Part shown: positions 494 to 23,560 of the stretch, in pieces | Numbering within the stretch: position 1 is the first letter of the stretch | Layout of the letters: each line of letters begins with the position of its first letter | Source: a virus | Reading direction: 5' to 3' (one strand) | Length of the DNA: 64,000 bases | Virus record (IMG/VR): IMGVR_UViG_3300042691_022450 | The notes under the pieces: model-generated | Told to the model about the DNA's origin: nothing | Seen by the model: only the letters and a program-made list of their open reading frames with translations | Databases searched by the model: none | Position numbers and translations under genes: made by a program

Positions 494-982
494 ATGAACA
501 AAGAACCACTCCAAGCAAAAGTATCCGACGAAGATTACCAAAAGGTTTTAAATCTTATGAATAATCAAGAACCATATCCTGATTCTATGTTTGAGGAAGC
601 AGAACGTCGTGAAGTAGCAAACAGAGAACTTGCAAAAGAAGAATGGGAACGCAAAAAACGCAGTGATACTCTGCTGGCACGATATAATGCTTTCTATAAT
701 GATGAATGTTCTGGACTGCCTCACGGGACACCAATCACACCAGAACATATGCAGGCAATTGCATTACAATCTGCAATTGATGCTCTGCGTTGCGAAAACC
801 TGAATCGTGAGTATAATGAAATCGCAATCTCTGATATTGAGGATTTGATTGAACGATTGTATCAACAGAGTAATGAGTATCTTCAACGAGTGAGGAAACT
901 GAAAAATGACTTACTCACCAAACCTGTGACACTTGTGAAACTGGCACAAGACCCCACCAATCCCCCTGTGGATGCCCTATAA
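494..982 (+). CDS. Hypothetical protein; its C-terminus reads through a palindrome promoter
   Basis: ORF 449..982, likely start ATG 494. The last ~20 codons overlap the repeat at 926-983. Confidence 0.6.
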   Translation: MNKEPLQAKVSDEDYQKVLNLMNNQEPYPDSMFEEAERREVANRELAKEEWERKKRSDTLLARYNAFYNDECSGLPHGTPITPEHMQAIALQSAIDALRCENLNREYNEIAISDIEDLIERLYQQSNEYLQRVRKLKNDLLTKPVTLVKLAQDPTNPPVDAL

Positions 983-983
983 T
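926..983 (+). promoter_or_regulatory. Palindrome-associated early promoter, copy 1
   Basis: GTGACActtgtgaaacTGGCAC at 926-947, 30-bp gap, TATAAT at 978-983. Confidence 0.8.
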
Positions 984-1005
984 AGTCTCATATTCAAAAA
1001 GAGCA

Positions 1006-1269
1006 ATGACTGCTTCCAATCTTTCTAAAATCAAACCTAAACTTCGCACTCAAGGCTCTGTATCTGGGAACTTTGGTAGGGCAAAAGTTAAAGCAGGTTC
1101 TCCTTTGCGTGATATTGGAATGACCGATGCAAAAGTAGTTAAAGTTTGCACACAAGAAGATTATCTGAAGAGACTCTATCTTGCATATAAGACAACTGAA
1201 GATGCTAAACTGAAAAAGTTTGTATTTTCTGAAATTAAAAAGATTATGATTCAACGAGGAGAATGGTGA
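1006..1269 (+). CDS. Basic hypothetical protein
   Basis: 87-aa ORF directly downstream of promoter copy 1. Confidence 0.7.
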   Translation: MTASNLSKIKPKLRTQGSVSGNFGRAKVKAGSPLRDIGMTDAKVVKVCTQEDYLKRLYLAYKTTEDAKLKKFVFSEIKKIMIQRGEW

Positions 1270-1451
1270 GTAACACTGTTTACGCATATTCAGAAGTTGA
1301 ACGTGCTTACAAGATTCTTAAAGAACTTGTAGAACGTGAGAATAAACTTCATATGATGGATATGACCATCAATCTCCAACATCTTGATGTTATTCAATAC
1401 GAGATTCTTCCTGCACTGGAAGAAATCGTTTATTTTGACCCAACTCCTTAA
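1263..1451 (+). CDS. Hypothetical protein
   Basis: 62-aa ORF overlapping the previous stop. Confidence 0.6.
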   Translation: MVSNTVYAYSEVERAYKILKELVERENKLHMMDMTINLQHLDVIQYEILPALEEIVYFDPTP

Positions 1452-1455
1452 ACTA

Positions 1456-1746
1456 ATGCAATTCAATTTTAATACTGTTAAAGATTTTTACGTTGAAAAC
1501 GTGAATGATGATGTCCTTAAAAAAGTTGGACTGACTGCTGGTATCTTCACAGTCGTGATTGTCTCTCAACTCTTTCTTCACGGATTTGTTGAAATTGTTG
1601 ATAGTATCCCCGTATTCAACTCTCTGATGCAAGTTGTTGGTGTTTATGCATCTGCAAGGTTTGCTATAGCAAACCTCACAACTCAAGAGAAACGTGATAA
1701 TCTTGCGAAAAACGTTCGGAATACCTACCAAGATGTAGTAGGTTGA
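1456..1746 (+). CDS. CAAD-domain / CurT (CURT1)-like thylakoid membrane protein
   Basis: 96 aa from ATG 1456. Two hydrophobic helices and the pattern IVDSIPVFNSLMQVVGVYASARF...LTTQEKRDNL...VVG match the CAAD profile as I recall it. Confidence 0.7.
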   Translation: MQFNFNTVKDFYVENVNDDVLKKVGLTAGIFTVVIVSQLFLHGFVEIVDSIPVFNSLMQVVGVYASARFAIANLTTQEKRDNLAKNVRNTYQDVVG

Positions 1747-1767
1747 TTGAATACATAAGTATAACGA

Positions 1768-1825
1768 TGGACGGTTTTTGTTCTGTCCATTTGCACTTGA
1801 TTACGCACCGAAAGGGTGCTATGAT
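1768..1825 (+). promoter_or_regulatory. Palindrome promoter, variant copy 2, which also has a -35 box
   Basis: TGGACGgtttttgttcTGTCCA at 1768-1789, 30-bp gap to the -10; TTGATT(1797)-17 bp-TATGAT(1820). Confidence 0.7.
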
Positions 1826-1844
1826 TACGAAGTAAATCACTCAA

Positions 1845-1973
1845 ATGATGTTCGACACGTTCAATTTTACTGGTGATGCCACTACCTTTATTGGTTTGGT
1901 TGGTGTTATTAGCACTGCTGTTATTGTTATTACTGTTTTCCGTTCTTACTGGTCTAGTCCTTATCGCAAATGA
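1845..1973 (+). CDS. Small single-transmembrane protein (42 aa)
   Basis: MMFDTFNFTGDATTFIGLVGVISTAVIVITVFRSYWSSPYRK, below the ORF-track cutoff. It follows a promoter and its stop overlaps the next ATG. Confidence 0.65.
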   Translation: MMFDTFNFTGDATTFIGLVGVISTAVIVITVFRSYWSSPYRK

Positions 1974-2191
1974 TTTATTCAAAATCCATTCAAGAGTACG
2001 AAAAAGAACTCAAGGAAGCAAAGAAAAAGTTTGATAAACTCTCTAAGCAATATAAAAAGTGTAGAAGTGTTTATCAAGCAGAGATGATGTACGATGACCT
2101 AACAATTCTGAATGAAGATATTTCTGAACTTCAGATGATTGTGAAGGAACTGCGTCAACAAAAGAAACTTGCCGAAATTGATGTTGTCTAA
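1970..2191 (+). CDS. Coiled-coil hypothetical protein
   Basis: 73-aa ORF with heptad-like K/E/L pattern. Confidence 0.65.
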   Translation: MIYSKSIQEYEKELKEAKKKFDKLSKQYKKCRSVYQAEMMYDDLTILNEDISELQMIVKELRQQKKLAEIDVV

Positions 2192-2193
2192 TT

Positions 2194-2424
2194 ATGTCTG
2201 ACCTTTATACTGAAATCTTGGTGTTTAACAAAATGTCTTTTAATCGTGAGCAACTTGTTGAGGATTATATCCAGCAAACGATTGGAGGAATGGATTATAA
2301 GACTATGGAACGTTTTGTTTATGATACTTTGAAAGATAATCTAGCAGATTATAATGATGAAGAATTGATTACAGAGGTTACAGACTACTACCCAGAATTG
2401 TTGGAGGATGTTGATACTCTGTGA
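2194..2424 (+). CDS. Acidic hypothetical protein
   Basis: 76-aa ORF; its stop lies inside palindrome copy 3. Confidence 0.65.
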   Translation: MSDLYTEILVFNKMSFNREQLVEDYIQQTIGGMDYKTMERFVYDTLKDNLADYNDEELITEVTDYYPELLEDVDTL

Positions 2425-2478
2425 CACTTGTGGCACTGGCACACTAAAAGAGCACAGCACCTCAAATCCTGCTATAAT
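2421..2478 (+). promoter_or_regulatory. Palindrome promoter, copy 3
   Basis: GTGACActtgtggcacTGGCAC at 2421-2442, 30-bp gap, TGcTATAAT (-10 at 2473-2478). Confidence 0.85.
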
Positions 2479-2500
2479 TACTTCGTAATCAATCAACACC

Positions 2501-2677
2501 ATGTTAGTCCTTGATTCTATTGGTTTCTACGATAAGTTTCAAAATTATAATCTAATCCTAGATTTTTCTGGTCGTTGGGTAGAATATTATAATTATATGA
2601 TATCTCCTTTTAATGAAAAATGGATAAATAAAACTTATCAAGATGAGATAAAGCAAAATCGGTTTTACGATGTTTGA
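2501..2677 (+). CDS. Hypothetical protein (58 aa)
   Basis: MLVLDSIGFYDKF...NRFYDV; the only ORF between palindrome copies 3 and 4. Confidence 0.6.
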   Translation: MLVLDSIGFYDKFQNYNLILDFSGRWVEYYNYMISPFNEKWINKTYQDEIKQNRFYDV

Positions 2678-2686
2678 TTGTGCCTT

Positions 2687-2744
2687 GTGCCACTGATTCT
2701 TCTGGCACATAACACTTTACAGACCCCAGAACCTGTGATATGAT
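2687..2744 (+). promoter_or_regulatory. Palindrome promoter, copy 4
   Basis: GTGCCActgattcttcTGGCAC at 2687-2708, 30-bp gap, TGaTATGAT (-10 at 2739-2744). Confidence 0.8.
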
Positions 2745-2772
2745 GTATTCATCAAGTCAAGGAGGTTTCAAG

Positions 2773-2916
2773 ATGATTGACACTTGTGTTCTTCACGATG
2801 ATTACGAGGACTTTGCTAAAAAGTTTCTCGGTGTTGATTATGAGGACTTTATTGGTCTTCAACTTGGTCTTCCCGATGAAGATGAAATTGAAATTGAATA
2901 CTCTTTAAGTATTTGA
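2773..2916 (+). CDS. Small acidic protein (47 aa)
   Basis: Strong SD GGAGG at 2761; MIDTCVLHDDYEDFAKKFLGVDYEDF... Confidence 0.65.
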   Translation: MIDTCVLHDDYEDFAKKFLGVDYEDFIGLQLGLPDEDEIEIEYSLSI

Positions 2917-3001
2917 TTTCATTTGGAACGGGTTTGCCAATGGGTTGGAAATATCTAACCAATAAAGTTACCCATTTTTCGTTCCCTTGACTTTTCATTA
3001 A

Positions 3002-3226
3002 ATGTCTGCTAAACTGATTGCTCTTGCTTCCGAAATCGTTGATACCAACCCTGCTGGTGCTCAACTGATTGTTAGTCTGACTAAAGCAGAAACTGGTGCT
3101 GAACTCATCGAAGCACTTGATAACTATGATTCCACCGTGCTTGAGAACTATTCTGAACCTGTGGATTCTGAAGATGAAGGTGAAGTGACTCTCACCGATG
3201 CAGATGGTATTGTAACTTCTGTTTGA
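3002..3226 (+). CDS. Acidic hypothetical protein
   Basis: 74-aa ORF with phage-like codon usage. Confidence 0.7.
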   Translation: MSAKLIALASEIVDTNPAGAQLIVSLTKAETGAELIEALDNYDSTVLENYSEPVDSEDEGEVTLTDADGIVTSV

Positions 3227-3264
3227 TTTTTGATTCTTTAATTTCTTAACCAACTAATTTTATT

Positions 3265-3516
3265 ATGGCACGTCGCAACAAGTCTGCATCTCGTCAAATG
3301 GTTGAAAATCTTCAAGAACAACTTGTTGAGTATTTTCAAGAAAACATCTTTGATGATTGTGATTACGAAGATTTGACTGGTTCTGACCTTCTTGAAGCAC
3401 TGGTTGGCACTTTCCGTGAACTGGAAAGTGAAATCCAAAAGAAAATGAACCCGATTCAATATGTTCTAAATAAAATTGACCCAGAGGATTCTGAATCTCA
3501 AGTCCTTAACGGTTAA
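3265..3516 (+). CDS. Acidic hypothetical protein
   Basis: 83-aa ORF. Confidence 0.7.
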   Translation: MARRNKSASRQMVENLQEQLVEYFQENIFDDCDYEDLTGSDLLEALVGTFRELESEIQKKMNPIQYVLNKIDPEDSESQVLNG

Positions 3517-3600
3517 TTCTTACGGGCATCAAAGGTCCAAACTTTGAATAAGACCCACACCTCCTATGCCTCTTCACAATGCACAAACCTGGAGGTTTAT

Positions 3601-3674
3601 GGGTTAGTAGCTCAGATGGATAGAGCAATTCACTTCTAATGAATTGGTCGGGGGTTCGAGTCCCTCCTAACCCG
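3601..3674 (+). tRNA. tRNA-Arg (anticodon TCT)
   Basis: Acceptor stem GGGTTAG/CTAACCC; D-arm GCTC...GAGC; anticodon arm ATTCA-CTTCTAA-TGAAT; T-loop GTTCGAG; no encoded CCA. Confidence 0.95.
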
Positions 3675-3688
3675 TTATTTTTATTATT

Positions 3689-4459
3689 ATGAAACTCAAA
3701 GTTTTAAGTGACCTACATCTTGAGCACTTTGTTGCTTGTCAAGTATTTGATGTTGGTGAAGGTGATGTTCTAGTTCTTGCTGGTGACATACTTAATGCCA
3801 AGCATTTCAAGACTGATGGGTATATTCACGAGGTTTATGATAGATTCTTGAATGATTGTAGCAAGAACTACGATAGAGTTCTTTATGTATTTGGAAATCA
3901 CGAATATTATGGATACAATTACGAAGGAAGTAAGAGGAAAATAAAAGAGCATCTTCCTCATAATTTCCAAATCCTTGACAATGACACAGTTACCATCAAC
4001 AACTGGAATTTCTTAGGTTTCACTCTCTGGACTGACTTTAGGAATGAAAATGCTCTAGAGATGATGGAAGCAGCACAAGTGATGAATGACTACAAAGTTA
4101 TTCGTATTACTCCAAAGTATCGGAAACTGAATCCAACTGACACTCTTAATTTTCATAAGGATAGTAAGAAGTATCTGTTGAATCAACTAAAAACACTCAA
4201 TGACAATGTATTTGTCATCAGTCATCATGCACCGAGTTATCAATCGGTTCCACAGCAATTCAAGAAACACGCAAATGGTGCCTATTGTAGTAATCTGGAT
4301 GATTTGATTGTTAATCATCCACAAATCAAATACTGGGCTCACGGTCATACTCACACTGCTTTTAATTATATGATTGAAGGTTGCCGAGTGATTTGTAATC
4401 CTGGTGGGTATCCTGGACAAGGAACTGGATTTAATCCAGATTTACTTTTTGACATCTAG
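3689..4459 (+). CDS. Calcineurin-like metallophosphoesterase
   Basis: Motifs SDLH, AGD, GNHE, HH and HGHTH. Confidence 0.9.
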   Translation: MKLKVLSDLHLEHFVACQVFDVGEGDVLVLAGDILNAKHFKTDGYIHEVYDRFLNDCSKNYDRVLYVFGNHEYYGYNYEGSKRKIKEHLPHNFQILDNDTVTINNWNFLGFTLWTDFRNENALEMMEAAQVMNDYKVIRITPKYRKLNPTDTLNFHKDSKKYLLNQLKTLNDNVFVISHHAPSYQSVPQQFKKHANGAYCSNLDDLIVNHPQIKYWAHGHTHTAFNYMIEGCRVICNPGGYPGQGTGFNPDLLFDI

Positions 4460-4507
4460 ATATAAGGAAGGTAGAATCTTCCCACACATTAAACTCGCAA
4501 AAGGTCG

Positions 4508-4984
4508 ATGGACTACTTAAAAATTGAACCAAATCAAACTATTCTTGTTCTAAACGCATCCTATGAACCAATTAACTTTACTAATTGGAAAAGAGCAATC
4601 GTGCTGCTTATGAAGAACAAAGCACAAGCACTTGGTAAGAGAGTCATTCGACTGGTCAATTACATTAAGTTGCCCTACGAGAAACTAATGCAAAATAGAC
4701 CATCACGAGCAATGATTTATAAACGTGATGGTCATAAGTGTCAGTATTGTGGTTCAACTAAAGAACTAACTATTGACCACATCATCCCACGTTCTCGTGG
4801 TGGTGAAGATACTTGGGAAAATCTTACTGTTGCTTGTATGCCTTGCAACTCTAAAAAAAGTGATAAACTTCTTGAAGAAACTAATTTGTCTCTTCGCACT
4901 ATTCCAAAAAAACCACTGAATAAGATGCTATTTGCTCTTGATAGAGCAAATGTCCCAGAGTGGAATGAATACTCTTATGTCTAA
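4508..4984 (+). CDS. HNH endonuclease (McrA-like, bacterial-type VLNASYEP family)
   Basis: LVLNASYEP N-terminus; RDGHKCQYCG; TIDHIIPRSRGG; WENL..ACMPCN.KK. Confidence 0.9.
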   Translation: MDYLKIEPNQTILVLNASYEPINFTNWKRAIVLLMKNKAQALGKRVIRLVNYIKLPYEKLMQNRPSRAMIYKRDGHKCQYCGSTKELTIDHIIPRSRGGEDTWENLTVACMPCNSKKSDKLLEETNLSLRTIPKKPLNKMLFALDRANVPEWNEYSYV

Positions 4985-5146: not shown

Positions 5147-5205
5147 GTGCCACTTGTAGCACTGTCCCTAACACCTCTCCAAATCCCCTGGAGGGGTGTT
5201 ATACT
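5147..5205 (+). promoter_or_regulatory. Palindrome promoter, copy 5
   Basis: GTGCCActtgtagcacTGTCCC at 5147-5168, 31-bp gap, TGtTATACT (-10 at 5200-5205). Confidence 0.8.
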
Positions 5206-5950: not shown

Positions 5951-6589
5951 ATGACTACAAGAGTTAGTTTAATTGCCAATGACGCAGTAACTGGTGCTGG
6001 AATTAGTAATGAAACAATTACTAATGATGATATAGCACCTGGAACAATATCAACTAATAAGATCAATTTCACCACAGCACTTGTTCCAGTTGGTGGAATT
6101 ATTATGTGGTCTGGAACTACGACACCAGATGGGTGGCAACTATGCAATGGAACTGATTTACCATCAACTTCTCCATTAAGACCAAATATTACAAAAACTC
6201 CAGACCTAAGAGATAGATTTATTGTAGGTGCTACTAGTGGAGGAGATGGTGTTTATCCTGGAGTTGGTGTCAATCAAACTGGTGGTAGTGCCAATGCCGT
6301 TGTAGTTTCTCACATTCATACTGGAACCACTGGTGGGCAAAGTCAAGATCATACTCATACTTGGGGACGACAAGATGCTCAAAATGATGCCAATAATAGA
6401 CCCTGGCCTGCAAGTAATAATGACTGTATAATTAGTGAAGTTCAAACTGGTGGTACATCACAAGACCACACACATAATTTTACAACTTCCGATGCCAAAA
6501 ATGGATCTGATGTTGTCATTGGCGCATCAGCAACAAATGCAAACCTTCCACCATATTATGCCCTTGCGTTCATTATAAGGGTCTTATAA
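5951..6589 (+). CDS. Tail-collar-domain / short-fibre-like protein
   Basis: VPVGGIIMWSG..PDGWQLCNG...TPDLRDRFIVGA, HxH motifs and C-terminal NLPPYYALAFIIR. Late promoter TAAATA at 5920-5925. Confidence 0.85.
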   Translation: MTTRVSLIANDAVTGAGISNETITNDDIAPGTISTNKINFTTALVPVGGIIMWSGTTTPDGWQLCNGTDLPSTSPLRPNITKTPDLRDRFIVGATSGGDGVYPGVGVNQTGGSANAVVVSHIHTGTTGGQSQDHTHTWGRQDAQNDANNRPWPASNNDCIISEVQTGGTSQDHTHNFTTSDAKNGSDVVIGASATNANLPPYYALAFIIRVL

Positions 6590-6599
6590 TTTATCCAAT

Positions 6600-6657
6600 G
6601 TGCCACTCGTAGCACTGGCACAGTAAATGAGCACAGACCCCCCTGATGCCCTACAAT
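6600..6657 (+). promoter_or_regulatory. Palindrome promoter, copy 6
   Basis: GTGCCActcgtagcacTGGCAC at 6600-6621, 30-bp gap, TACAAT at 6652-6657. Confidence 0.85.
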
Positions 6658-6683
6658 ACAGGGACACAAGCAAAGGAGACCAC

Positions 6684-6932
6684 TTGGCAGACCTCGATAC
6701 TATCTTTAACTACACCACCTCTCGTTGGGATTGGCATGAAGGTAATGTCAATCAAATGTGGATTCAAGAGATTGAAGAATCTCCTGATTTTTATCGTTAT
6801 ATTGCCGTTGCTTACAATCCTCGTAAGAATGTGAGCACGGTAGTATCTGAACCTCGTTGCTATGCTGACACCTTGAACTGGGTTCGTATGTATTGCGGTA
6901 ATTTCTGTATTCTTCCTGAGTATTGCTATTGA
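6684..6932 (+). CDS. Hypothetical protein
   Basis: ORF 6627..6932; likely TTG start at 6684 after SD GGAG, downstream of promoter copy 6. Confidence 0.6.
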   Translation: MADLDTIFNYTTSRWDWHEGNVNQMWIQEIEESPDFYRYIAVAYNPRKNVSTVVSEPRCYADTLNWVRMYCGNFCILPEYCY

Positions 6933-7098
6933 TTATGCTTTACAACATTACAGTTGAGTTTAAGGATGGAACTGTCGAGACGTTTCAACGCAGAAGCAAC
7001 ATCAAACCCATCAACAGTGTAAAACTCAACGATAAGATTGCTAACGAAATCTTTCCACGAGAGTGGAAAGAAATCTCTTCCAAACCTGTTTATTGATT

Positions 7099-7479
7099 AT
7101 GTCTTTCACTTTTCTTCGTCTGTCTGCTGGTATCTACGAAGTTCAGAAGGATTCTAACACTGTTGGATTCATTCGTAAAGCATCTGCTGCTAAGTGGATT
7201 GTTGTTGATGTTGTAGACACTCCTCAACAAGTCACAAAGACTCTCAAAGAAGCAAAGGATGCTTGTGTCAATCTAATCATCTTTGATGTGGTTGACAAGA
7301 CCCCTGAACCTGAGTATAATGACTCTGTAGGGGTTGATAAGGTGAATACTGAACTTAATAAGGTTGTTGAAGGTTCTTTGAATTGCTATAAGCAAGTTGA
7401 AGGTACTGATGAGTTTGTAAAAGTATCTCCTACTGAGTTTGGATTCCCTGAACCTACTCTTGAACCGATTGAGTTCTAA
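7099..7479 (+). CDS. Hypothetical protein
   Basis: ORF 7063..7479, likely start ATG 7099. Confidence 0.65.
   Translation: MSFTFLRLSAGIYEVQKDSNTVGFIRKASAAKWIVVDVVDTPQQVTKTLKEAKDACVNLIIFDVVDKTPEPEYNDSVGVDKVNTELNKVVEGSLNCYKQVEGTDEFVKVSPTEFGFPEPTLEPIEF
7292..7320 (+). promoter_or_regulatory. Consensus sigma70 promoter inside the 7099-7479 ORF
   Basis: TTGACA(7292)-17 bp-TATAAT(7315), an exact consensus match. Confidence 0.7.
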
Positions 7480-7661
7480 TGTTTAAGTTTATTTTACACC
7501 TTTTAGTTAATCAAAACAAAATGCACGATTCTACTCTTGACCTGTTCTGCGAACACGAAGATTCTAAGTATGCAGATGAATATGCACTTTATGTTGAAGA
7601 ACTTGCTTCAAAATACGAAGTGACTTGTGATTACATCATCCAAGAGTTTATTCTTGAATAA
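7479..7661 (+). CDS. Small acidic hypothetical protein
   Basis: 60-aa ORF; the true start may be the internal Met (MHDSTLDL). Confidence 0.55.
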   Translation: MFKFILHLLVNQNKMHDSTLDLFCEHEDSKYADEYALYVEELASKYEVTCDYIIQEFILE

Positions 7662-7664
7662 TCT

Positions 7665-7742
7665 GTGCCACTAATTGCACCGTCCATAACACCTTCCGTT
7701 GATTCGGGGGGTGGGATTTGTGTTATTTTTTTATTATAAATA
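7665..7742 (+). promoter_or_regulatory. Palindrome copy 7, lacking its usual -10, followed by a T4-type late promoter
   Basis: GTGCCActaattgcacCGTCCA at 7665-7686; no -10 at the 30-bp position; TATAAATA at 7735-7742. Confidence 0.7.
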
Positions 7743-7766
7743 ATAACAGAAATAACATTAAACCCT

Positions 7767-8273
7767 ATGCCATTCAAAGATGAAAATAAGTTAAAACAAT
7801 ATAGAAAAGATTATTGGGAAAAAAATAAAGAACATTATGAGAAATCCAGAAGAAATAGAATTTCTAATCAAACTGAAGAAGATAAGGAAAACTATAAAAA
7901 TACCAGGAATATATGGAGAGAAAAAAATAAAGATGAAATTAATAAAAAACAGAGAGAAAGGAAAGAAAAACATAAAAAATATTTGATTGAGATGCTTGGT
8001 GGAAAATGTGCTGGATGCGGAACAACTACCAATTTACAATTCGACCATATTGATAGAAATAGTAAGTTATTTTGTATAACTCATCAACTTGCTTCAAAAT
8101 TAGAAAAATTAATAGAAGAGGCAAACAAATGTCAATTATTATGTGATAGTTGCCATAGAATAAAAACATCAATAAATCACGATGCTAATTGTTTAGCAGA
8201 AGGCAAGAGGGTAATTGACATACAAATTATCGGAAGTAAAACCATTGTGACACTAGAACAAGTGTCCCTATAA
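7767..8273 (+). CDS. HNH homing-endonuclease-like protein
   Basis: K/E/R-rich helical N-terminus; LGGKCAGCG, FDHID, KCQLLCDSCHRIKT; much more AT-rich than neighbouring genes. Confidence 0.85.
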   Translation: MPFKDENKLKQYRKDYWEKNKEHYEKSRRNRISNQTEEDKENYKNTRNIWREKNKDEINKKQRERKEKHKKYLIEMLGGKCAGCGTTTNLQFDHIDRNSKLFCITHQLASKLEKLIEEANKCQLLCDSCHRIKTSINHDANCLAEGKRVIDIQIIGSKTIVTLEQVSL

Positions 8274-8304
8274 TTGACCGAGCACGGGGTTTCTGTGCTA
8301 CAAT
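8247..8304 (+). promoter_or_regulatory. Palindrome promoter, copy 8
   Basis: GTGACActagaacaagTGTCCC at 8247-8268, 30-bp gap, TGcTACAAT (-10 at 8299-8304). Confidence 0.75.
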
Positions 8305-8327
8305 ACTTGTATTGATGAATTGATTTT

Positions 8328-9560
8328 ATGAAACTTTATCCCTATCAGCAGAGAACTCTTGATGCGATTAAGTCTCAAATTAAAGGCACTTGCTATCTTC
8401 CTACTGGTGCGGGTAAAACTGTTGTGATGATGGAAGATGCTCGTCAGAGGATTCTTAACGCACTGGAACCAATGACATTTGTTGTTGTTGCTCCTCGTAT
8501 TCTGCTTGCAAATCAACTTTGTTCTGAGTTTGAAGCATATCTCAAGGACCAGAATGTTGCTTATATGCACGTTCACAGTGGTGAAACTCATCATCAATCC
8601 TCTACACGTCCAGCAGACATTGCAGAATACAATGACACTGCAATCGGAAGTGGAAAGCATCAGTTTATCTTCACCACTTATAATTCGATTGGTCGGGTGA
8701 ATGAATCAGATATTGAAATTGATGTTGTGTATTTTGATGAAGCACATCATTGTGTGAAACCATCCAACTTTGTTGGTATTGCACATACTTCATCAGTTGC
8801 AGATAATGCTTATTTCTTCACTGCAACCCCGAAGTTCAATAACAGCACTGAGTCTATGAATAATACTGATGTTTATGGAAATAACATCATCAGTATTCCT
8901 GCACAAGAACTGATTGATGCTGGTAGTATCATTCCTCCCAAAGTTGTGCCTTATGAAGCACAAACCATTCGCACTAAAGAAAATGCTGCATTTGTAGATG
9001 CAGAAAACGTTGTAGGTATTCTCTCAGAGATTTCTGATTGTGATGCTCCTAAAGTTCTTGTTGCTGCTCCAAGCACCAAAGTAATCTGGGCAATGTTTAC
9101 TGAGAGTGATTTGCTTCAACAACTCAATGATATGGGTTATACGATTATGCACATCACTTCCAAGCACGGTGCTTATATTGACAAACAGAAAGTGTCTCGT
9201 GAAGTATTCTTTGAGAAGATGAGTGAGTTTGGTGCAGACCCAGAGAAAAAGTTCATTGTGTTTCACTACAGCATCTTGTCTGAAGGTATCAATGTTCAAG
9301 GTTTGACTCATTGCATTATGCTTCGCAATCTTCCATTGATTGAAATGGCACAGACTGTTGGACGGGTTATCCGTATGCACGGTGATGACCGTAAAGCAAT
9401 CGCAGATGGTAAGATGAAAGCAGGAGAGTTTGCTTTCTACAAGAAACCATTTGGCACTATCACGATTCCTGTTAATAACAACTATGGTGATAAGATTGCA
9501 AAGCAACTTCAAAATGTTGTGGATACTATCTTTGTGAAAGGTGAAGTTCTTGGTGTATAA
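8328..9560 (+). CDS. SF2 DEAH-box helicase (ResIII-like)
   Basis: Q-motif LYPYQ, Walker A PTGAGKT, FDEAHH, TAT, LSEGINV and QTVGRVIR. Confidence 0.9.
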   Translation: MKLYPYQQRTLDAIKSQIKGTCYLPTGAGKTVVMMEDARQRILNALEPMTFVVVAPRILLANQLCSEFEAYLKDQNVAYMHVHSGETHHQSSTRPADIAEYNDTAIGSGKHQFIFTTYNSIGRVNESDIEIDVVYFDEAHHCVKPSNFVGIAHTSSVADNAYFFTATPKFNNSTESMNNTDVYGNNIISIPAQELIDAGSIIPPKVVPYEAQTIRTKENAAFVDAENVVGILSEISDCDAPKVLVAAPSTKVIWAMFTESDLLQQLNDMGYTIMHITSKHGAYIDKQKVSREVFFEKMSEFGADPEKKFIVFHYSILSEGINVQGLTHCIMLRNLPLIEMAQTVGRVIRMHGDDRKAIADGKMKAGEFAFYKKPFGTITIPVNNNYGDKIAKQLQNVVDTIFVKGEVLGV

Positions 9561-9587
9561 ATTATATTATGTGTCCCACATAGAATT

Positions 9588-9752
9588 ATGCCATTTACAA
9601 AGAAATTTCCACAGTCAGGAGAAACAACCCATATTCGGGTTCCGAAATGTTATGCTGAACTCATTGAAGAACTGATGGTAACGTTAGATGAACGATTTGA
9701 TGTAGATAAGGGCAAACATCTACTGAAGAAGTTCATACACAACTTAACGTGA
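9588..9752 (+). CDS. Small putative ribbon-helix-helix DNA-binding protein (54 aa)
   Basis: MPFTKKFPQSGETTHIRVPKCYAELIEELMVTLDE...; strand (THIRVP) followed by helices, as in RHH proteins. Confidence 0.45.
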   Translation: MPFTKKFPQSGETTHIRVPKCYAELIEELMVTLDERFDVDKGKHLLKKFIHNLT

Positions 9753-9767
9753 GTCCAATGATATCCT

Positions 9768-9824
9768 GTGCCACCTGTAGCACTGGCACAGTAAATGAGC
9801 ACATACCCCTAAATGTGTTATAGT
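9768..9824 (+). promoter_or_regulatory. Palindrome promoter, copy 9
   Basis: GTGCCAcctgtagcacTGGCAC at 9768-9789, 29-bp gap, TGtTATAGT (-10 at 9819-9824). Confidence 0.85.
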
Positions 9825-10014
9825 AGTTCTATGGTTGAGGAAGACCTTCAATGACTTACACCCCACATCTTTCTAAGATTCCTTATTTGATGATTCCAGA
9901 AAACAGAGTGAATCTTGCATTCAACTGGTATCAACGAGATAGGAGTCATCCACAAAACTTTCCTGCTTATTCTTATTGGATTCAACAATGCACAAATGAT
10001 GGGAGTGATTACTG

Positions 10015-10197
10015 ATGGAAATGCTTGATACTGTTCTGACTATTGAGGAAGTTTTGACTGATAAACAATTGCTTGCTCTGCAAGACATTCTTTGCCATTA
10101 CAAAGAGTTTCAGGAAGAACTTTACAACTATCCTGAACCTGATACTCTCTTCACTAAGACTCAACAAGAACTGTTTGACATCTTTAACATCAAATGA
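10015..10197 (+). CDS. Acidic hypothetical protein
   Basis: 60-aa ORF, translationally coupled to its neighbours. Confidence 0.6.
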   Translation: MEMLDTVLTIEEVLTDKQLLALQDILCHYKEFQEELYNYPEPDTLFTKTQQELFDIFNIK

Positions 10198-10400
10198 CTT
10201 CTATTTCTTTTACCTCTGGTGAGTTGTTGGATATTATGTCCGTACTTGAAGAGAAAGAAAATGCTCTTCAACTTGCAGAGAATTATCAACTCTCTGCTTA
10301 TTATATGCACCTTGGGGGTCAATTCCAACGGATTTATGATAAACTGCAGGAGTTTGTTCCTGAGAACCGAGTTGCCAATCTTGTCCTTGCTGTGAATTGA
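10194..10400 (+). CDS. Hypothetical protein
   Basis: 68-aa ORF with ATGA overlap. Confidence 0.6.
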   Translation: MTSISFTSGELLDIMSVLEEKENALQLAENYQLSAYYMHLGGQFQRIYDKLQEFVPENRVANLVLAVN

Positions 10401-10669
10401 TGACTATGGAAACACACAGTCTGATTATTCTTTCTACTGCACACCTACATCCATTGGAAGCAGCAAAGATTGATGAATTTTCTTATGTTGGAAACAAAGA
10501 ATGTGCTCTTGTTTCCACTGTTTCAGAGATGAGGGATTTCTATTATCAGGGTGGATTGGTTTGCTTGTGCGACCTGTTGAAATTGGTGCAAGAAAAATAT
10601 AATGCAAAATATGTTCTCTTTGACCCTGATGCAGATACTACTGATGAGTTCAGGTGTTATCAATGGTGA
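10397..10669 (+). CDS. DUF5983-like hypothetical protein
   Basis: LSTAHL...DLLKLVQEKYNAKYVLFDPDA pattern. Confidence 0.5.
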   Translation: MMTMETHSLIILSTAHLHPLEAAKIDEFSYVGNKECALVSTVSEMRDFYYQGGLVCLCDLLKLVQEKYNAKYVLFDPDADTTDEFRCYQW

Positions 10670-10670
10670 T

Positions 10671-10728
10671 GTGCCAGTTGTAGCACTGGCACACTAAAAG
10701 AGCACAGAGGCACCAGATGCCTTATAAT
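10671..10728 (+). promoter_or_regulatory. Palindrome promoter, copy 10
   Basis: GTGCCAgttgtagcacTGGCAC at 10671-10692, 30-bp gap, TATAAT at 10723-10728. Confidence 0.85.
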
Positions 10729-10749
10729 ACTCTCATACGAAACAAACCG

Positions 10750-10917
10750 ATGACCCTGACCGAAGCAAACAAGATATGGTCCGACTGTTACAACAGCGGC
10801 GACCTCTCACTGTGGAACAACTATACTAACGCCCAGCGTGAGCAGGCAATCGCCACCCGAGACGCCCACTTCAACGGTCGCCAGTGGGGCATCTGGAACA
10901 TCAACGATTGGGACTGA
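10750..10917 (+). CDS. GC-rich hypothetical protein (55 aa)
   Basis: MTLTEANKIWSDCY...; 68 of 120 bases at 10801-10920 are G/C, with C-ending codons. Confidence 0.65.
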   Translation: MTLTEANKIWSDCYNSGDLSLWNNYTNAQREQAIATRDAHFNGRQWGIWNINDWD

Positions 10918-10948
10918 TTGCCCTACCTGGTGGTCTGACTGGTAAGTG

Positions 10949-11007
10949 ATGGCACTCTGAAAACTGGCACAGGGCATCCTTCGGAGTGCCCTTTGATGCC
11001 TTATAAT
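10949..11007 (+). promoter_or_regulatory. Palindrome promoter, copy 11 (degenerate left arm)
   Basis: atGGCActctgaaaacTGGCAC at 10949-10970, 31-bp gap, TATAAT at 11002-11007. Confidence 0.7.
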
Positions 11008-11032
11008 ACTCTCATACACAAAGGAACTTCAA

Positions 11033-11299
11033 ATGCTTGATGCCTTTACTGATTATCCTATTGAAAAACTTGATGATATTGAATTTGAAAAAGCACCCAT
11101 TCGTAAATGCACCATTCTAACTTGGGACAGAAATAAGTATTGTGATGTCCTTGTATATTTTGTAGATGAGGATGGTGATTTGCGAGGACACATTACTAAC
11201 TTCAAGCAGTGGTATTTGTATAAGAATGAAGCACGACTTGATGATGGTATTCAATTTACTGATGATGAACTGAAAACTCTTCCTTGGACTTGCCGATGA
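11033..11299 (+). CDS. Hypothetical protein
   Basis: 88-aa ORF with SD AAGGA. Confidence 0.7.
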   Translation: MLDAFTDYPIEKLDDIEFEKAPIRKCTILTWDRNKYCDVLVYFVDEDGDLRGHITNFKQWYLYKNEARLDDGIQFTDDELKTLPWTCR

Positions 11300-11660
11300 C
11301 TGCTATTGAAATTGATGAAATGATGAACCGAATGGAATCATTTGGTGGTTCATTTGTTGTTGCACTTGCTTATGCAATGCGAAAAGCAGACCCATCAAAT
11401 AAAACTAGACTGATTCTTGCCTTTCCTGAGTATGTGAAAGAGTATGGACCAGAAAGTCAGTTTCCTGCGTATGAATGATGAAACCTAAGTTCCGTGCCGT
11501 ATTAGAAATGGCAATAGAAGAAGGTGTAAGGTTTGGATACAATCGTGCTTTTAAGCATAATTCAGAACCACACATTGATTCTATATCTGATAGTATAGTT
11601 ACAGAAATCTTTAATTCACTTGACACTTGGTTTGATGACATCAACGACACTGAAAACTAA
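11296..11660 (+). CDS. Two coupled small hypothetical proteins (about 11296-11478 and 11475-11660)
   Basis: ATGA overlaps; motifs GGSFVVALAYAMRKAD and LEMAIEEGVRFGYNRAFKH. Confidence 0.6.
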
Positions 11661-11661
11661 A

Positions 11662-12057
11662 ATGAATCCTGAAATTAAACAGAAATGGGTTGATGCTCTG
11701 CGTTCTGGTAAGTATGACCAGGGCAGTAAGAAACTCCGCAGTCATCAAGGTTATTGTTGCCTTGGTGTTCTTTGTGATTTGTATGCACAAGAACAGAATA
11801 GAGAGTGGAAGTTTAGTGGAGAGTATGAGGAAAGTCCTCTCCCGATGGATTATTGGTATTTCGATGGTGAGGGTGAGTTTCTGCCCGACTCTGTAAGAGA
11901 ATGGGCAGGATTTTCTCTTCCTAGTCCTGAAGTTCGAGTTGATGTAACCGACAATGATGATGAGGATGATTGGTTCTATAATGATGAGATTGCCAGTCTG
12001 AACGATACAGGTTATACTTTTGAAGCACTTTCTAAACTAATCAAAGAACAATTTTAA
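11662..12057 (+). CDS. Conserved phage hypothetical protein (W..ALRSG.Y.QG / CCLGVLC family)
   Basis: ATG 11662; KWVDALRSGKYDQG...YCCLGVLCDL...LNDTGYTF. Confidence 0.7.
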   Translation: MNPEIKQKWVDALRSGKYDQGSKKLRSHQGYCCLGVLCDLYAQEQNREWKFSGEYEESPLPMDYWYFDGEGEFLPDSVREWAGFSLPSPEVRVDVTDNDDEDDWFYNDEIASLNDTGYTFEALSKLIKEQF

Positions 12058-12236
12058 TGGAACAACAAACTGTGACTCAATACAAGTCTGTAAATCTTAC
12101 TCTGTATTTCAATGCTGAATTGGATGATGGTGAGGTACAAGATTTCATTGACCGTATGACTGGAAAGTATAATCATCCTGATGACATCATCAAAGATTAT
12201 GAATACTGGTATGATGAGTGAGTCTAGTGTGAGACT

Positions 12237-12295
12237 GTGCCACTTGTAGAGGTGGCACACTATACCCCCCAAACCCCTTGCTGAGGTGCTACAAT
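12237..12295 (+). promoter_or_regulatory. Palindrome promoter, copy 12
   Basis: GTGCCACttgtagagGTGGCAC at 12237-12258, 31-bp gap, TGcTACAAT (-10 at 12290-12295). Confidence 0.85.
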
Positions 12296-12320
12296 GATTG
12301 CATTGAAGGTTGAGAGACCA

Positions 12321-12716
12321 ATGACCGAAACACAAGTTCAACTCAAAGAAGCCACTGTTGATTTCATTAAGGATTTGGTTGAGCAATCCTATTATGATGA
12401 AGATATGTATATTTTCATCGGTGAGCACGGTGAAGATACATTTGTTCAGTATTATGAAGAGTATGTTCAGTTTGGTGAATCTTATAACTATCGTGCTGTA
12501 GATACTTTCATTGAAGAGTTTGGTATTGATAATCTATCTTCCTTTGAAGATGCTTACCGTGGTGAATGGGAGTCTAAAGCAGATTATGCGGAAAACTTTG
12601 TAACTGATTGTTATTCTGTTGATTTCCCTGCTTTTATTGAGATTGACTGGGAAAATACCTTTGACAATCTTGATTCTGTTTATGTCAATGGTTTTGTTTT
12701 TGATACCCAATTCTGA
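12321..12716 (+). CDS. ArdA-like anti-restriction (DNA mimic) protein
   Basis: Very acidic. FEDAYRGEWESKADYAENFV...PAFIEIDWE resembles the ArdA C-terminal domains. Confidence 0.65.
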   Translation: MTETQVQLKEATVDFIKDLVEQSYYDEDMYIFIGEHGEDTFVQYYEEYVQFGESYNYRAVDTFIEEFGIDNLSSFEDAYRGEWESKADYAENFVTDCYSVDFPAFIEIDWENTFDNLDSVYVNGFVFDTQF

Positions 12717-12719
12717 ATT

Positions 12720-12968
12720 ATGAAACTTCAATCTAACGATGGAAACATGGTGGTAGATTTCTACCCCATCAAAACACCTTTTGGTGATGTATCTCAAGAG
12801 TGGTTCTTGAAGACTCTCACTTTTATGGGTCAAAGTCAATCCAAGAAGTTTCTCAATCGCATTGAGATGAATCTTGAGATTGAAGAATATCTCAATCACA
12901 CTATTCCGTATGAAGTTGTAGACTTCAATACGATTCCACAACTTGCTAATCCTTTTATTGGTGTCTGA
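12720..12968 (+). CDS. Hypothetical protein
   Basis: 82-aa ORF. Confidence 0.65.
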   Translation: MKLQSNDGNMVVDFYPIKTPFGDVSQEWFLKTLTFMGQSQSKKFLNRIEMNLEIEEYLNHTIPYEVVDFNTIPQLANPFIGV

Positions 12969-12970
12969 CA

Positions 12971-13186
12971 ATGCTTCTGAAACTAACTGACATTGAGTTT
13001 GATTTTGATGATGGAGAAGAAATCTCTGGGGAACTTCCTTATGATGAACAGGTTGCAGTCACTAAATCCGTGATTGGTGAAGTCTTTGAGGTTGAGACTG
13101 AAGATGAACTTGCTGATGCAGTTTCTGACAGAACTGGTTGGTGTGTGAAATATCTTGATTATGTTGAAATCTCTGAATCTCACTGA
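12971..13186 (+). CDS. Very acidic hypothetical protein
   Basis: 71 aa with IEFDFDD...LADAVSDRTGWCV; its stop TGA begins a TGAGTCCAATG element. Confidence 0.7.
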   Translation: MLLKLTDIEFDFDDGEEISGELPYDEQVAVTKSVIGEVFEVETEDELADAVSDRTGWCVKYLDYVEISESH

Positions 13187-13201
13187 GTCCAATGATGCCC
13201 T

Positions 13202-13258
13202 GTGCCACTTGTTCTAGTGGCACACTAAAAGAGCACAGACCCCTAAATGTGGTATTCT
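13202..13258 (+). promoter_or_regulatory. Palindrome promoter, copy 13
   Basis: GTGCCACTtgttctAGTGGCAC at 13202-13223, 29-bp gap, TGgTATTCT (-10 at 13253-13258). Confidence 0.85.
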
Positions 13259-13315
13259 TAAAGGGTGGAAGGGGTCGCACCCACCCGCAAACGTCCAAAC
13301 TCTATTTTAATCAAA

Positions 13316-13513
13316 ATGACTGTTGATTTCTCTCGTGATGTGATGGTTGGTATGCTCCGCAAGGGTGATACTGGCAACGACATTCTGGATATTCTGAATG
13401 TTCTTGTTCCCGATCAAACTGAACTCACTCGTGAGCAAGTTTGTGAAGACCTGGGCATTGCTGATTGTCCTGAGAATGATGATGAGATTGCCCGTGCTAT
13501 GGTTGCTGCCTGA
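13316..13513 (+). CDS. Acidic hypothetical protein
   Basis: ORF 13265..13513, likely start ATG 13316. Confidence 0.65.
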   Translation: MTVDFSRDVMVGMLRKGDTGNDILDILNVLVPDQTELTREQVCEDLGIADCPENDDEIARAMVAA

Positions 13514-13567
13514 GTTTAATTTGGGGGAGATTCAATTCTCCCTCTGTGGATTTAATTCATTTACTCT

Positions 13568-13765
13568 TTGATTCCAATGTTTGTTATCTGTCCCGCATCT
13601 TTTGATTTGATTGATGCTGAGTGGTTTGACAATGTATATGAAGCAAAAGATGAAGCACTTGATTGGAGTGTTGAACTCTCTGGTGAGAATGTGATTGTTT
13701 ATCGGGCAGTTGAGGAAGATGATGGTGCTTATGAGTTTGATAAACTCTATGCCATCTCTGCCTGA
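13568..13765 (+). CDS. Acidic hypothetical protein
   Basis: 65-aa ORF. Confidence 0.6.
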   Translation: MIPMFVICPASFDLIDAEWFDNVYEAKDEALDWSVELSGENVIVYRAVEEDDGAYEFDKLYAISA

Positions 13766-14090
13766 TGAGAACTAAAACACTCACATTTAGACCACCAAAT
13801 AAGATGCGAACTATAATTCTTATCTTTGCGGTTGCATTTATTTTCTCTCCGAGTGTGAGGAATGTAACTGCAAACACACTTTACACTGTTGCTGACGTTA
13901 TTTCATCCAAATGACACTCACTCACATTAACAATCAAAAACTTAAGCAGTTTGCTATTACTGCTCCTGGATTTGAGTTTCCTGATTATGTTTATGCAGAA
14001 ACAAGAGAACAAGCAATTCTAGAGTGGGCAGATACTATTGTTTGTGCTGATGTAACTGAAATTGAAGAACGGTGAGTCCAGTGTTGAGAC

Positions 14091-14147
14091 ATGCCACTTG
14101 TAGCACTGGCACACTAAACGGGCACTGGCACTTTTTTCTGGTAAATT
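14091..14147 (+). promoter_or_regulatory. Palindrome promoter, copy 14
   Basis: aTGCCActtgtagcacTGGCAC at 14091-14112, 29-bp gap, TGgTAAATT (-10 at 14142-14147). Confidence 0.8.
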
Positions 14148-14199
14148 AAGAGGGTGGAAGGGGTCAGTCCCATCCGAGTCCAATTCTTCACTTCTTGTT

Positions 14200-14874
14200 A
14201 TGGATCGTCAGCAAGTTATCGCAAAGATTCAATCCATTCTGAAACTGCAGAATGGAACTTCTTTTGAAGGTGAGGCAGATGCTGCTGCCAAGATGATTGA
14301 TAAACTGTGTAAGCAGTATGGTGTTACAATCACCGAAGCAACTGAAACTCAAGTTTATGATGAATCTTTCATCAATTTCAAACGTGTGAATGTTGCACTT
14401 ACGACTCTTCTGAATGCGATTGCATCTTTCTATGATGCAAAGGCATATATGAAGAATGGTGATGTTAAGTCTCTGCAAATCATTGGTAGTGAAGCACAAC
14501 AAATCCAAGTGCGTCTCTATTATGATTACCTGAATCAAGTGATGGAGAAAGAAGCAGAAGTTGCATATCAAGCAGAGAAGATTATGTCTGCTCTAACTGG
14601 TGCAACTGTTTCTCGTAGTTTCAAACTTAATTTCCGCAAGGCATTTGCAGATAATGTTGCTCTGCGTTTGCGTGAAATGAAGAAAGCAGAGAACCGAGTT
14701 CACGATGATGCAAAAGCAGTGAGTGATAAACTCTCTACGATGCGATTCGGACGTGCAAAGAAGATGAATGGTGCTAATGGTGCTGGTGCTTATGCTGGTT
14801 CTAACGTTGGTGCTGGTGTATCTCTGAACCGTCAAGCAACTGGTTCTGTGACCAAACAACTGTGTGGAGTGTGA
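14200..14874 (+). CDS. DUF2786-domain protein
   Basis: N-terminal IAKIQSILKL...FEGEADAAAKMIDKLCKQYG; C-terminal F..AFADNVALRL...G.NVGAGVSLNRQ. Confidence 0.75.
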   Translation: MDRQQVIAKIQSILKLQNGTSFEGEADAAAKMIDKLCKQYGVTITEATETQVYDESFINFKRVNVALTTLLNAIASFYDAKAYMKNGDVKSLQIIGSEAQQIQVRLYYDYLNQVMEKEAEVAYQAEKIMSALTGATVSRSFKLNFRKAFADNVALRLREMKKAENRVHDDAKAVSDKLSTMRFGRAKKMNGANGAGAYAGSNVGAGVSLNRQATGSVTKQLCGV

Positions 14875-14918
14875 GTTAATCTCACCTCTACTTCACTTTT
14901 CCCTTTATTCCTAATACG

Positions 14919-15251
14919 ATGAACGCACAACTGACAATTGATGAGTGTAAACTGATGTGGGTTGTTGGTGCATTGCAACGACTTGCAACTTTGGGTATGA
15001 TTGGTCCTGATATTCCTCTGAAACTTTCTGGTAGTGCAGTAGATGATTATCTTTATATTGATGAGCATCGGGAAATTCTGTTTGAATCTGATTTTGAGAT
15101 TGCAAGTATTTTCACTGCTCTTGTCAATAGTGAATGTGACCCAAAAGTTCAAAATCCTGATGATACCAAACCTCTGATTGAACTTCTTCTGCAATATAAG
15201 AACAATCGCACCGAGATTGTGAAGTATGCACTCTCGCAACAAGTTATTTGA
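14919..15251 (+). CDS. Hypothetical protein
   Basis: 110-aa ORF. Confidence 0.65.
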   Translation: MNAQLTIDECKLMWVVGALQRLATLGMIGPDIPLKLSGSAVDDYLYIDEHREILFESDFEIASIFTALVNSECDPKVQNPDDTKPLIELLLQYKNNRTEIVKYALSQQVI

Positions 15252-15451
15252 AAATGACAATGGATAAAGATTTAATGCAAATCACACTGAGTAAGGAAAA
15301 TTATAAGGTTCTACATAAACTCATCTGCGACCAAATGGTTTATATTCTTTCTCCATTTGACAATGATGATTATGAACCAACGCAAGAACATCTAAAGATT
15401 CTCGACGCAGTTACAAAGTTCAGTTCTTATCAAGTTACTTACAATGTTTGA
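15248..15451 (+). CDS. Hypothetical protein
   Basis: 67-aa ORF. Confidence 0.55.
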   Translation: MKMTMDKDLMQITLSKENYKVLHKLICDQMVYILSPFDNDDYEPTQEHLKILDAVTKFSSYQVTYNV

Positions 15452-15692
15452 CCTTCTGAAGTTTAACCCCCATCATATTCCTGAGTCTATTCAAGCACGA
15501 CATAAGTTTTCCAACGGTTGGGAGATTAGTGTAGTTGCTGGTCCACCGAATTGTGGTCTCTATGGCAACATCAATGAGAACACTTATGAAGTTGCAATTT
15601 TCCGTCCCAATGGAAATATGACTGAAGATGTAAATGGTTGGAATACTAAAGAAGAAGTATCTGCGATGATGTGGGTGCTGTCTCAACTCTAG
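15444..15692 (+). CDS. Conserved phage hypothetical protein
   Basis: KFSNGWEISVV...GLYG...TYEVAIF pattern. Confidence 0.65.
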   Translation: MFDLLKFNPHHIPESIQARHKFSNGWEISVVAGPPNCGLYGNINENTYEVAIFRPNGNMTEDVNGWNTKEEVSAMMWVLSQL

Positions 15693-15705
15693 TCTCTTAT
15701 ACCGT

Positions 15706-15762
15706 GTGCCACTTGTAGCACTGGCACAGTAAAAGAGCACAGACCCCTGGATGTGGTATATT
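15706..15762 (+). promoter_or_regulatory. Palindrome promoter, copy 15
   Basis: GTGCCActtgtagcacTGGCAC at 15706-15727, 29-bp gap, TGgTATATT (-10 at 15757-15762). Confidence 0.85.
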
Positions 15763-23559: not shown

Positions 23560-23560
23560 A

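Follow-up and report, generated by a model that had tools for sequence, protein, structure and literature searches.

A stretch of viral DNA of 64,000 nucleotides (IMG/VR record IMGVR_UViG_3300042691_022450, analysed over its whole length and hereafter called the window) carries, in a region of small genes, an array of repeated units that consist of a short dyad, a variable box and a -10 hexamer. These units are probably promoter cassettes that serve the early-type small genes in a T4-like cyanomyovirus, and we consider PlmA, a regulator of the picocyanobacterial host, the leading candidate for the protein that would bind the dyad. To our knowledge, T4-like cyanophages lack the proteins with which T4 reprograms the polymerase (Alt, ModA/B, MotA and AsiA), and because of this lack the activation of their early genes is a question in its own right. 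The window provides a clean and highly uniform freshwater example that, together with some 300 related copies, defines the site: two arms, a fixed phase and no pairing constraint. Moreover, the arm is identical to the half-site that a host activator binds, and for this activator both a binding site and an assay system (electrophoretic mobility shift assay (EMSA) and GFP reporter) have been published, which makes the question directly testable.

Structure of the repeated units

Our analysis confirmed that the repeated dyad and -10 units are real, strongly conserved and functional-looking. A sequence-only reading of the window had listed 15 copies of a dyad, and its strict pattern recovered 11 distinct sites in the 64-kb window (926, 2421, 2687, 5147, 6600, 8247, 9768, 10671, 12237, 13202 and 15706) against 0.09 expected, a number that no shuffle equalled. 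The remaining four listed sites (14091, 10949, 7665 and 1768) are real as well and deviate from the pattern as degenerate or variant copies. All 15 sites are found on the + strand within 926-15762. A position weight matrix (PWM) that was trained solely on copies from other contigs, with the window's own copies excluded, identified 12 sites in the window, all of them within 926-15727; none occurred in 16-64 kb, in line with the claim that the structural region is free of copies, and none in 20 shuffles. The + orientation outscored the reverse at 11 of these 12 sites and the unit is therefore polar.

Alignment of all 15 copies yielded a three-part unit: the dyad, a variable box and the -10 hexamer. 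The dyad has the consensus GTGCCAC-TTGTAGCA-CTGGCAC, with flanks that are mostly T and A, and the box occurs as ACTAAA(A/T)GAGCACAG, ACTACACCCCCCAAACCCC or ATAACAC. The motif A(C/G)TAAA(A/T)GAGCACA, which had been reported as shared by several copies, was found at six sites (2421, 6600, 9768, 10671, 13202 and 15706) and as a variant at 14091. By hand count, the -10 begins 29, 30 or 31 nt past the dyad in 14 of the 15 sites and is TG-extended in 10 of these 14, which agrees with the spacing and the frequent TG extension given before. A scan with a -35/-10 consensus gave 54 sites versus 52.3 in shuffles, i.e. no excess, and only 3 copies overlap a match; the units are therefore without -35, as the same reading had stated for most copies. 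Every copy is located at the stop codon of the upstream open reading frame (ORF) or at most about 16 nt past it, and each heads one to six small ORFs on the + strand. Rfam returned no RNA family at the cassettes, and only a tRNA and an abiF motif elsewhere in the window. Readings of the dyad as a site for sigma-54, NtcA (GTA-N8-TAC), CRP or CIRCE were rejected by inspection, as their spacings and second half-sites do not fit.

The repeat with its geometry and conservation, its confinement to the small-gene region, the lack of selection for pairing and the identity of the half-sites are observations; that the units act as promoters, that they fire early, and that a protein, and which one, binds them is what we infer. 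A two-fold symmetric site of 22-24 bp, made up of inverted arms GTG(C/A)CA(C/G)TT(G) with their GTG ends outermost, is followed by the variable box and then, 29-31 bp downstream, by an often TG-extended -10 without a -35. Host RNA polymerase with the primary sigma factor would use the -10, and the upstream contact would come from a dimer of a DNA-binding protein that sits on the dyad, centred near -53; the position of the centre, which had also been proposed before, holds if transcription starts about 7 nt after the -10. The leading candidate for the binder would be the host GntR-family activator PlmA (PMM1637 type), because the phage arm equals the half-site of CGRE1, the element upstream of the yfr2 small RNA (sRNA) genes. 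Being repeated homologies of about 60-80 bp at gene boundaries, the cassettes are also carried along with their genes as modules. Metatranscriptome runs X15-X18 contained 41-56% of the sequence words of 6500-16000 and gave assembled contigs that cross dyads, possibly including DNA; the 'joints' between paralogous leaders in these contigs may be alignment or assembly effects, and no conclusion was drawn from them.

The virus, its relatives and the early-gene element of cyanophages

We assign the window to an uncultured freshwater T4-like cyanomyovirus of a new lineage. It encodes a T4-type baseplate wedge (gp6, gp8), a tail sheath, a portal that is 66-73% identical to the portals of Synechococcus and Prochlorococcus myoviruses, and head proteins. 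At the nucleotide level only the tRNA-Arg gene matched cultured phages. The motif-carrying relatives possess psbD and a psbA that shares 95-97% identity with its counterparts in Synechococcus, Cyanobium and Vulcanococcus. Most of the DNA runs that contain window sequence are labelled freshwater or riverine. The small-gene region (1-17 kb, GC 36-41%) directly precedes the baseplate genes, a location that it shares with the Syn9 region gp55-gp93, and its products include a CAAD-domain protein, a metallophosphoesterase, HNH endonucleases, a SNF2/ResIII helicase, and DUF2786 and DUF5983 proteins.

When IMG/VR was scanned with the exact pattern, it yielded 72 related stretches (L001-L072), which together with the window hold 305 non-redundant oriented copies, 264 of them with the 29-31 nt spacing and 181 with a TG-extended -10. 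Across the copies the arms are 91-100% invariant at their six outer positions, only C or G occurs at position 7, and the 8 nt in the middle are variable. In two complete relatives (247 and 284 kb) the 10-11 copies are gathered in one region of about 20 kb, with the exception of two or three degenerate ones. The scans that the sequence-only reading had suggested thus recovered the array in the window by PWM and about 300 copies in the 72 related stretches by exact pattern. The dyad is absent from the nearest record (G001, 13 kb).

The same family of sites is present in cultured phages. The intergenic regions between gp54 and gp93 of Syn9 contain the same arms, GTG(A/C)CA ... TG(G/T)C(C)AC, together with a C-rich box and a -10. 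In P-SSM2, P-HM1, P-HM2, P-SSM4 and P-SSM7 the dyad family is represented by 6-13 sites each, versus 1-2 for the reversed control, and in these five Prochlorococcus phages the dyads are clustered in the corresponding small-gene regions; members were also found in B3 and S-SKS1. Doron and colleagues reportedly described, in 2016, a novel regulatory element that controls early-gene transcription in Syn9 and P-TIM40, and this element is said to be abundant among T4-like cyanophages. The window cassette is very probably this early-gene "novel regulatory element": both belong to T4-like cyanomyoviruses, precede small genes in a region that in the window is syntenic with Syn9 gp55-gp93, and are abundant and conserved among cyanomyoviruses. 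The window differs by its uncultured freshwater lineage, its very uniform consensus and its 15 copies within 15 kb. The kind of element has reportedly been described already, and the lineage is what is new; in its comparison with known systems the sequence-only reading had cited the early-promoter stem-loop cassettes (PeSLs) of T4-type phages, and had missed this promoter type.

The dyad as a probable protein site and its candidate binders

The symmetry of the dyad could reflect a stem or a protein site, and the 264 copies with the 29-31 nt spacing bear on both. Positions 7 and 16, which would pair in a stem, vary independently (CC 108, CG 84, GC 46, GG 25; Fisher p 0.26), and at positions 4 and 19 all 34 changes are one-sided and break the pair, with zero compensatory changes. 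A stem cannot form at all in the window copies 926 and 2421. Consensus copies fold at z -0.9 to -1.4 with respect to shuffles, most fold z-scores being non-significant, and within the window no copy has a T-run after the dyad and none was called terminator-like. A stem should give covarying pairs; as none were seen, the dyad is most probably not acting as a hairpin. The reading that the dyad is an RNA or DNA stem-loop as in the PeSLs, serving as terminator or 3'-end stabiliser of the upstream unit, is therefore most unlikely, even though the dyad begins 4-16 nt past the upstream stop codon, fold energies of -15 to -18 kcal/mol (z about -2.8) are reached where the arms are 7 bp long and the stem-loops of PeSLs occupy the same position (PMC4122927). 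It is the sequence of the two inverted arms that is conserved, as is typical of a double-stranded DNA site for a dimeric protein, and the reading as such a site is well supported. The proposal that the dyad binds a dimeric activator in place of the -35 thus stood for the geometry of a dimer site, the absence of a -35 and the fixed helical phase. An activator is a plausible binder, given that the arms coincide with the half-site of CGRE1, a host element to which the activator PlmA binds.

CGRE1 is a palindrome of 21-22 nt whose edge lies 55-57 nt upstream of the start sites of yfr2 in marine picocyanobacteria (Lambrecht et al. 2018, PMC6191309). Pull-down, EMSA and a GFP reporter established that this palindrome is bound by the GntR-family protein PMM1637 (PlmA), which increases the activity of the yfr2 promoter (PMC6191309). 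We located Yfr2 genes (Rfam Cyano-1) in 66 picocyanobacterial genomes and examined 41 upstream regions. Many of these contain AACTG(G/T)CAC-N1-2-GTG(C/A)CAGTT(G), or the promoter-proximal arm alone. A PWM of the phage arm (consensus GTGCCACTTG) exceeded the 99th percentile of control windows in 14 of the 41 upstream regions, where 0.4 were expected, and its matches share one position, 47-51 nt ahead of the Cyano-1 start; the phage and host half-sites are therefore the same. The 9-10 bp half-site of CGRE1, GTG(C/A)CAGTT(G), is identical to the phage arm, and both sites are two-fold symmetric, lie upstream of a -10 without a good -35 and belong to the same host group. The phage dyad stops 29-31 nt short of the -10, about one helical turn closer than the CGRE1 arm, and the centres of the two sites are located some 52.5 nt (host) and 41 nt (phage) before the -10, about one helical turn apart and on the same face of the helix. 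Relative to the start site, this corresponds to a centre near -53 for the phage dyad and about -65 for CGRE1. Arm usage follows a similar division in phages and hosts: phages of MED4 mostly have GTGACA, like Prochlorococcus, and the clade of the window has GTGCCA (94%), like Synechococcus.

Several observations weigh against PlmA as the binder and against the reading of the cassettes that includes it. In CGRE1 the GTG ends are central and the arms 1-2 nt apart, whereas in the phage site the GTG ends are outermost with 4 nt between the 9-mers, and the host-type arrangement does not occur in the window; a rigid dimer could not bind both arrangements. Of 20 host cases, in which the -10 was assigned in this analysis, 16 have 42-44 nt between the end of the arm and the -10. 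At position 7 of the arm the hosts invariably have G, and about 57% of the phage arms have C. The scan of host genomes, which had been suggested as a check and was run on 201 host-family genomes, recovered the phage arrangement in only 13, fewer than the reversed control pattern, and its A/C pattern in 4, two of these inside a LysR-type gene; the phage arrangement is not a host regulon site. The match in A/C arm usage agrees with a host factor, and base composition could equally explain it. Finally, the equation of the window cassette with the element of Doron and colleagues is a probable one, made from the Syn9 sequence and the reported description of that element.

The dyad could instead be bound by a phage protein, either an activator delivered with the virion or an early or middle product that shuts the early promoters off, whose recognition helix happens to read a PlmA-like half-site with a dimer geometry of its own. 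This would account for an arm arrangement and spacing that are phage-specific, essentially absent from the 201 host-family genomes and opposite to CGRE1, and for an element that is kept across very different cyanomyoviruses of different hosts, as expected of a phage-borne factor. Against it, no GntR-domain gene, and no gene for a winged helix-turn-helix of that type, was found in four relatives (two of them complete), and 20 early-region ORFs of the window that were scanned gave no recognisable DNA-binding domain; the promoters that fire first need a factor that is already present in the cell or is injected, and coincidence or mimicry would have to account for the 10-bp identity with the half-site of a host activator. 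On balance we regard a phage-encoded binder as rather unlikely.

PlmA is, from the arm identity, a plausible and good candidate and not a finding. The specific proposal that T4-like cyanophages fire their first genes by recruiting host PlmA to a phage-specific, 'inside-out' CGRE1, one helical turn nearer to the promoter, is a possibility that we put forward tentatively. In the literature searched we found no published link between cyanophages and either PlmA or CGRE1. PlmA itself is connected with the PipX-PII system of nitrogen/carbon signalling. If the proposal is true, recruitment of PlmA would wire the onset of infection to the nitrogen and light status of the host, and the 10-20 sites per replicating genome could titrate PlmA off the yfr2 sRNA genes of the host.

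Two loci encountered in the host genomes touch on the geometry of the arms. Upstream of a Yfr2 gene in one host genome (L208, genome G049), two PlmA-type arms occur in direct and not inverted orientation (GTGACAGTT followed by GTGCCAGTTG), which suggests that the regulator may tolerate more than one arm geometry. On a picocyanobacterial chromosome (L169, host-family genome G044, contig 1, 114042-114063; 54% local GC) a phage-type dyad is followed by AGTAAATCC; the locus may be an island that came from a phage, or the host may in rare cases use the phage arrangement itself.

Cassettes as modules and other features of the region

The sequence-only reading had assigned the repeats a second role, as recombination points for the gain and loss of genes, and had proposed a comparison of gene content between consecutive copies. 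BLAST of 1-18 kb against the 72 loci gave 609 internal homology breakpoints, of which 74% fall in gene-boundary intervals that cover 20% of the sequence; nearly every gene boundary is a breakpoint, whether or not it carries a dyad. The 20 nt preceding a dyad are enriched 7.6-fold in breakpoints, and a boundary with a dyad is broken in roughly double the number of loci seen for the other gene boundaries (12.7 vs 6.2, p 0.01). Per 100 nt, however, the dyad intervals show no excess (10.2 breakpoints vs 13.4 in other boundaries).

Individual cases are seen in close relatives. In L032, L063 and L046 some 1.2 kb of additional sequence, a further cassette complete with dyad, promoter and ORFs, is inserted exactly at the 9768 head, between two flanking dyads. 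L055 is without ORF 13911-14075, the junction being 21 nt before dyad 14091, and in L033 a homologue of 2242-2476 is inserted ahead of the 13202 head. Dyad 7665, its terminator and the late-type TATAAATA precede an HNH-like ORF (7767-8273), and in the 98%-identical L062 a single head replaces dyad 7665, the terminator, the late promoter, this ORF and dyad 8247; the HNH-like segment looks like an insertion of the homing-endonuclease type into a cassette head. As the indel junctions in close relatives lie at the elements, the genes move as cassettes that start with a promoter head, and the comparison thus shows cyanophage gene cassettes moving together with their promoter heads. Gain and loss of cassettes at the elements therefore stood as predicted; the recombination reading as a whole was only partly supported, since dyad-bearing boundaries are not denser in breakpoints per nt, breakpoints favour gene boundaries of any kind, and the data thus do not single out the dyads as better recombination points than other gene boundaries.

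These data also bear on the possibility that the repeats are mainly recombination substrates, or selfish repeats spread with the cassettes, and that the dyad has no regulatory role. The cassette indels in relatives of 95-98% identity, which end at the elements, and the doubled number of loci with breakpoints speak for it, and the breakpoint density per nt and the near-universal breakage at gene boundaries against it. In addition, the arms are invariant next to a variable spacer and box, and the units keep one orientation and a fixed distance to the -10, which points to selection on function over homogenisation. We consider this explanation very unlikely, and promoter cassettes bound by a dimeric protein remain the reading that we prefer.

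PeSLs have been described for the T4-like phages RB49/phi1, PST/T4 and nt-1/KVP40 as a sigma70 -35/-10 promoter with a terminator stem-loop of which the structure and not the sequence is kept (Arbiol et al. 2010, PMC2839356; Comeau et al. 2014, PMC4122927). The window cassettes resemble them as composite elements that recur between small, non-essential genes in hyperplastic regions, with a dyad just upstream of an early promoter, and in the indels between close relatives that end at the elements. They differ in both parts of the unit: there is no -35, the 14 of 15 copies with a promoter hexamer having a -10, so that they do not conform to the sigma70 -35/-10 promoter, and the arms are conserved in sequence, lack covariation and a T-run, are unpaired in two copies and have weak z-scores, so that they do not conform to the terminator either. 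The window element is not a PeSL in the strict sense and is related to it by functional analogy only; of the comparison with PeSLs, the hyperplastic region and the cassette indels stood, the indels with weak specificity relative to other gene boundaries, and the promoter and stem-loop parts did not. Shuffling of the PeSL type had been considered unlikely in cyanophages (S-PM2, PMC4503421).

The individual copies are listed in the table.

Table. Copies of the dyad unit in the window, with the features that distinguish them
Feature	Position	Strand	Details
Cassette head	926..983	+	Dyad 926-947, left arm GTGACA; -10 TATAAT 978-983; overlaps the end of ORF 449-982
Variant cassette head	1768..1825	+	Different perfect dyad TGGACGG-N8-CTGTCCA; TG-extended -10 TATGAT 1820-1825
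Cassette head	2421..2478	+	TGA stop of ORF 2194-2424 inside the dyad; GAGCACA box; TG-extended TATAAT
Cassette head	2687..2744	+	ATAACAC-type box; -10 TATGAT
Cassette head	5147..5205	+	Right arm TGTCCC; TG-extended -10 TATACT
Cassette head	6600..6657	+	GAGCACA box; -10 TACAAT; homology breakpoint in 22 alignments to relatives
Dyad without -10	7665..7742	+	Dyad 7665-7686, right arm CGTCCA; intrinsic terminator 7690-7713; T4-late-type TATAAATA 7735-7742
Cassette head	8247..8304	+	GTGACA ... TGTCCC; TG-extended -10 TACAAT; heads SNF2/ResIII helicase gene 8328-9560
Cassette head	9768..9824	+	TGAGTCCAATGAT before; extra cassette inserted here in L032, L063, L046
Cassette head	10671..10728	+	Arms GTGCCAGTTG / CACTGGCAC; left arm equals the full 10-mer of the host half-site
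Degenerate copy	10949..11007	+	Left arm ATGGCA, right arm intact; -10 TATAAT
Cassette head	12237..12295	+	C-rich CCCAAACCCC box; TG-extended -10 TACAAT
Cassette head	13202..13258	+	TGAGTCCAATGAT before, GGGTGG...CCCACC leader after
Cassette head	14091..14147	+	One mismatch (A at position 1); -10 TAAATT
Cassette head	15706..15762	+	Dyad equals the exact consensus of the relatives, PWM score 40

Some of the cassettes share sequence outside the unit proper. The stretch TGAGTCCAATGAT is located at 9750-9762, 13184-13196 and 14073-14085, with many copies across L001-L072; the TGA within it is the stop codon of unrelated upstream ORFs, and it forms the left edge of a cassette subfamily that is common in the relatives. 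It is exact at just two window sites, without enrichment at 3 mismatches. On the other side, a purine-rich GGGTGG..CCCACC leader is common to three cassettes (13259-13330, 14148-14205 and 15763-15820) and widespread in the relatives; these leaders, after 13202, 14091 and 15706, fold no better than shuffles. The sequence GAGTCCAAT is repeated in the leaders past 14091 and 15706.

The structural region that adjoins the small-gene region has a GC content of 25-31% (22000-32000) and includes giant ORFs of 2796, 1669 and 2491 amino acids. Within the small-gene region, ORF 1384-1746 encodes a CAAD domain (E 2.6e-14), a membrane-anchoring domain of cyanobacterial aminoacyl-tRNA synthetases, and the interval 1451-1743 within this ORF is missing from the relative L062. 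An abiF RNA motif (RF03085, 46.9 bits vs a gathering score of 37) is located at 3560-3675, directly 5' of tRNA-Arg(TCT); such motifs usually sit upstream of abortive-infection abiF genes. In L062, 98% identical to the window, 3589-3884 is swapped for about 960 bp of other sequence.

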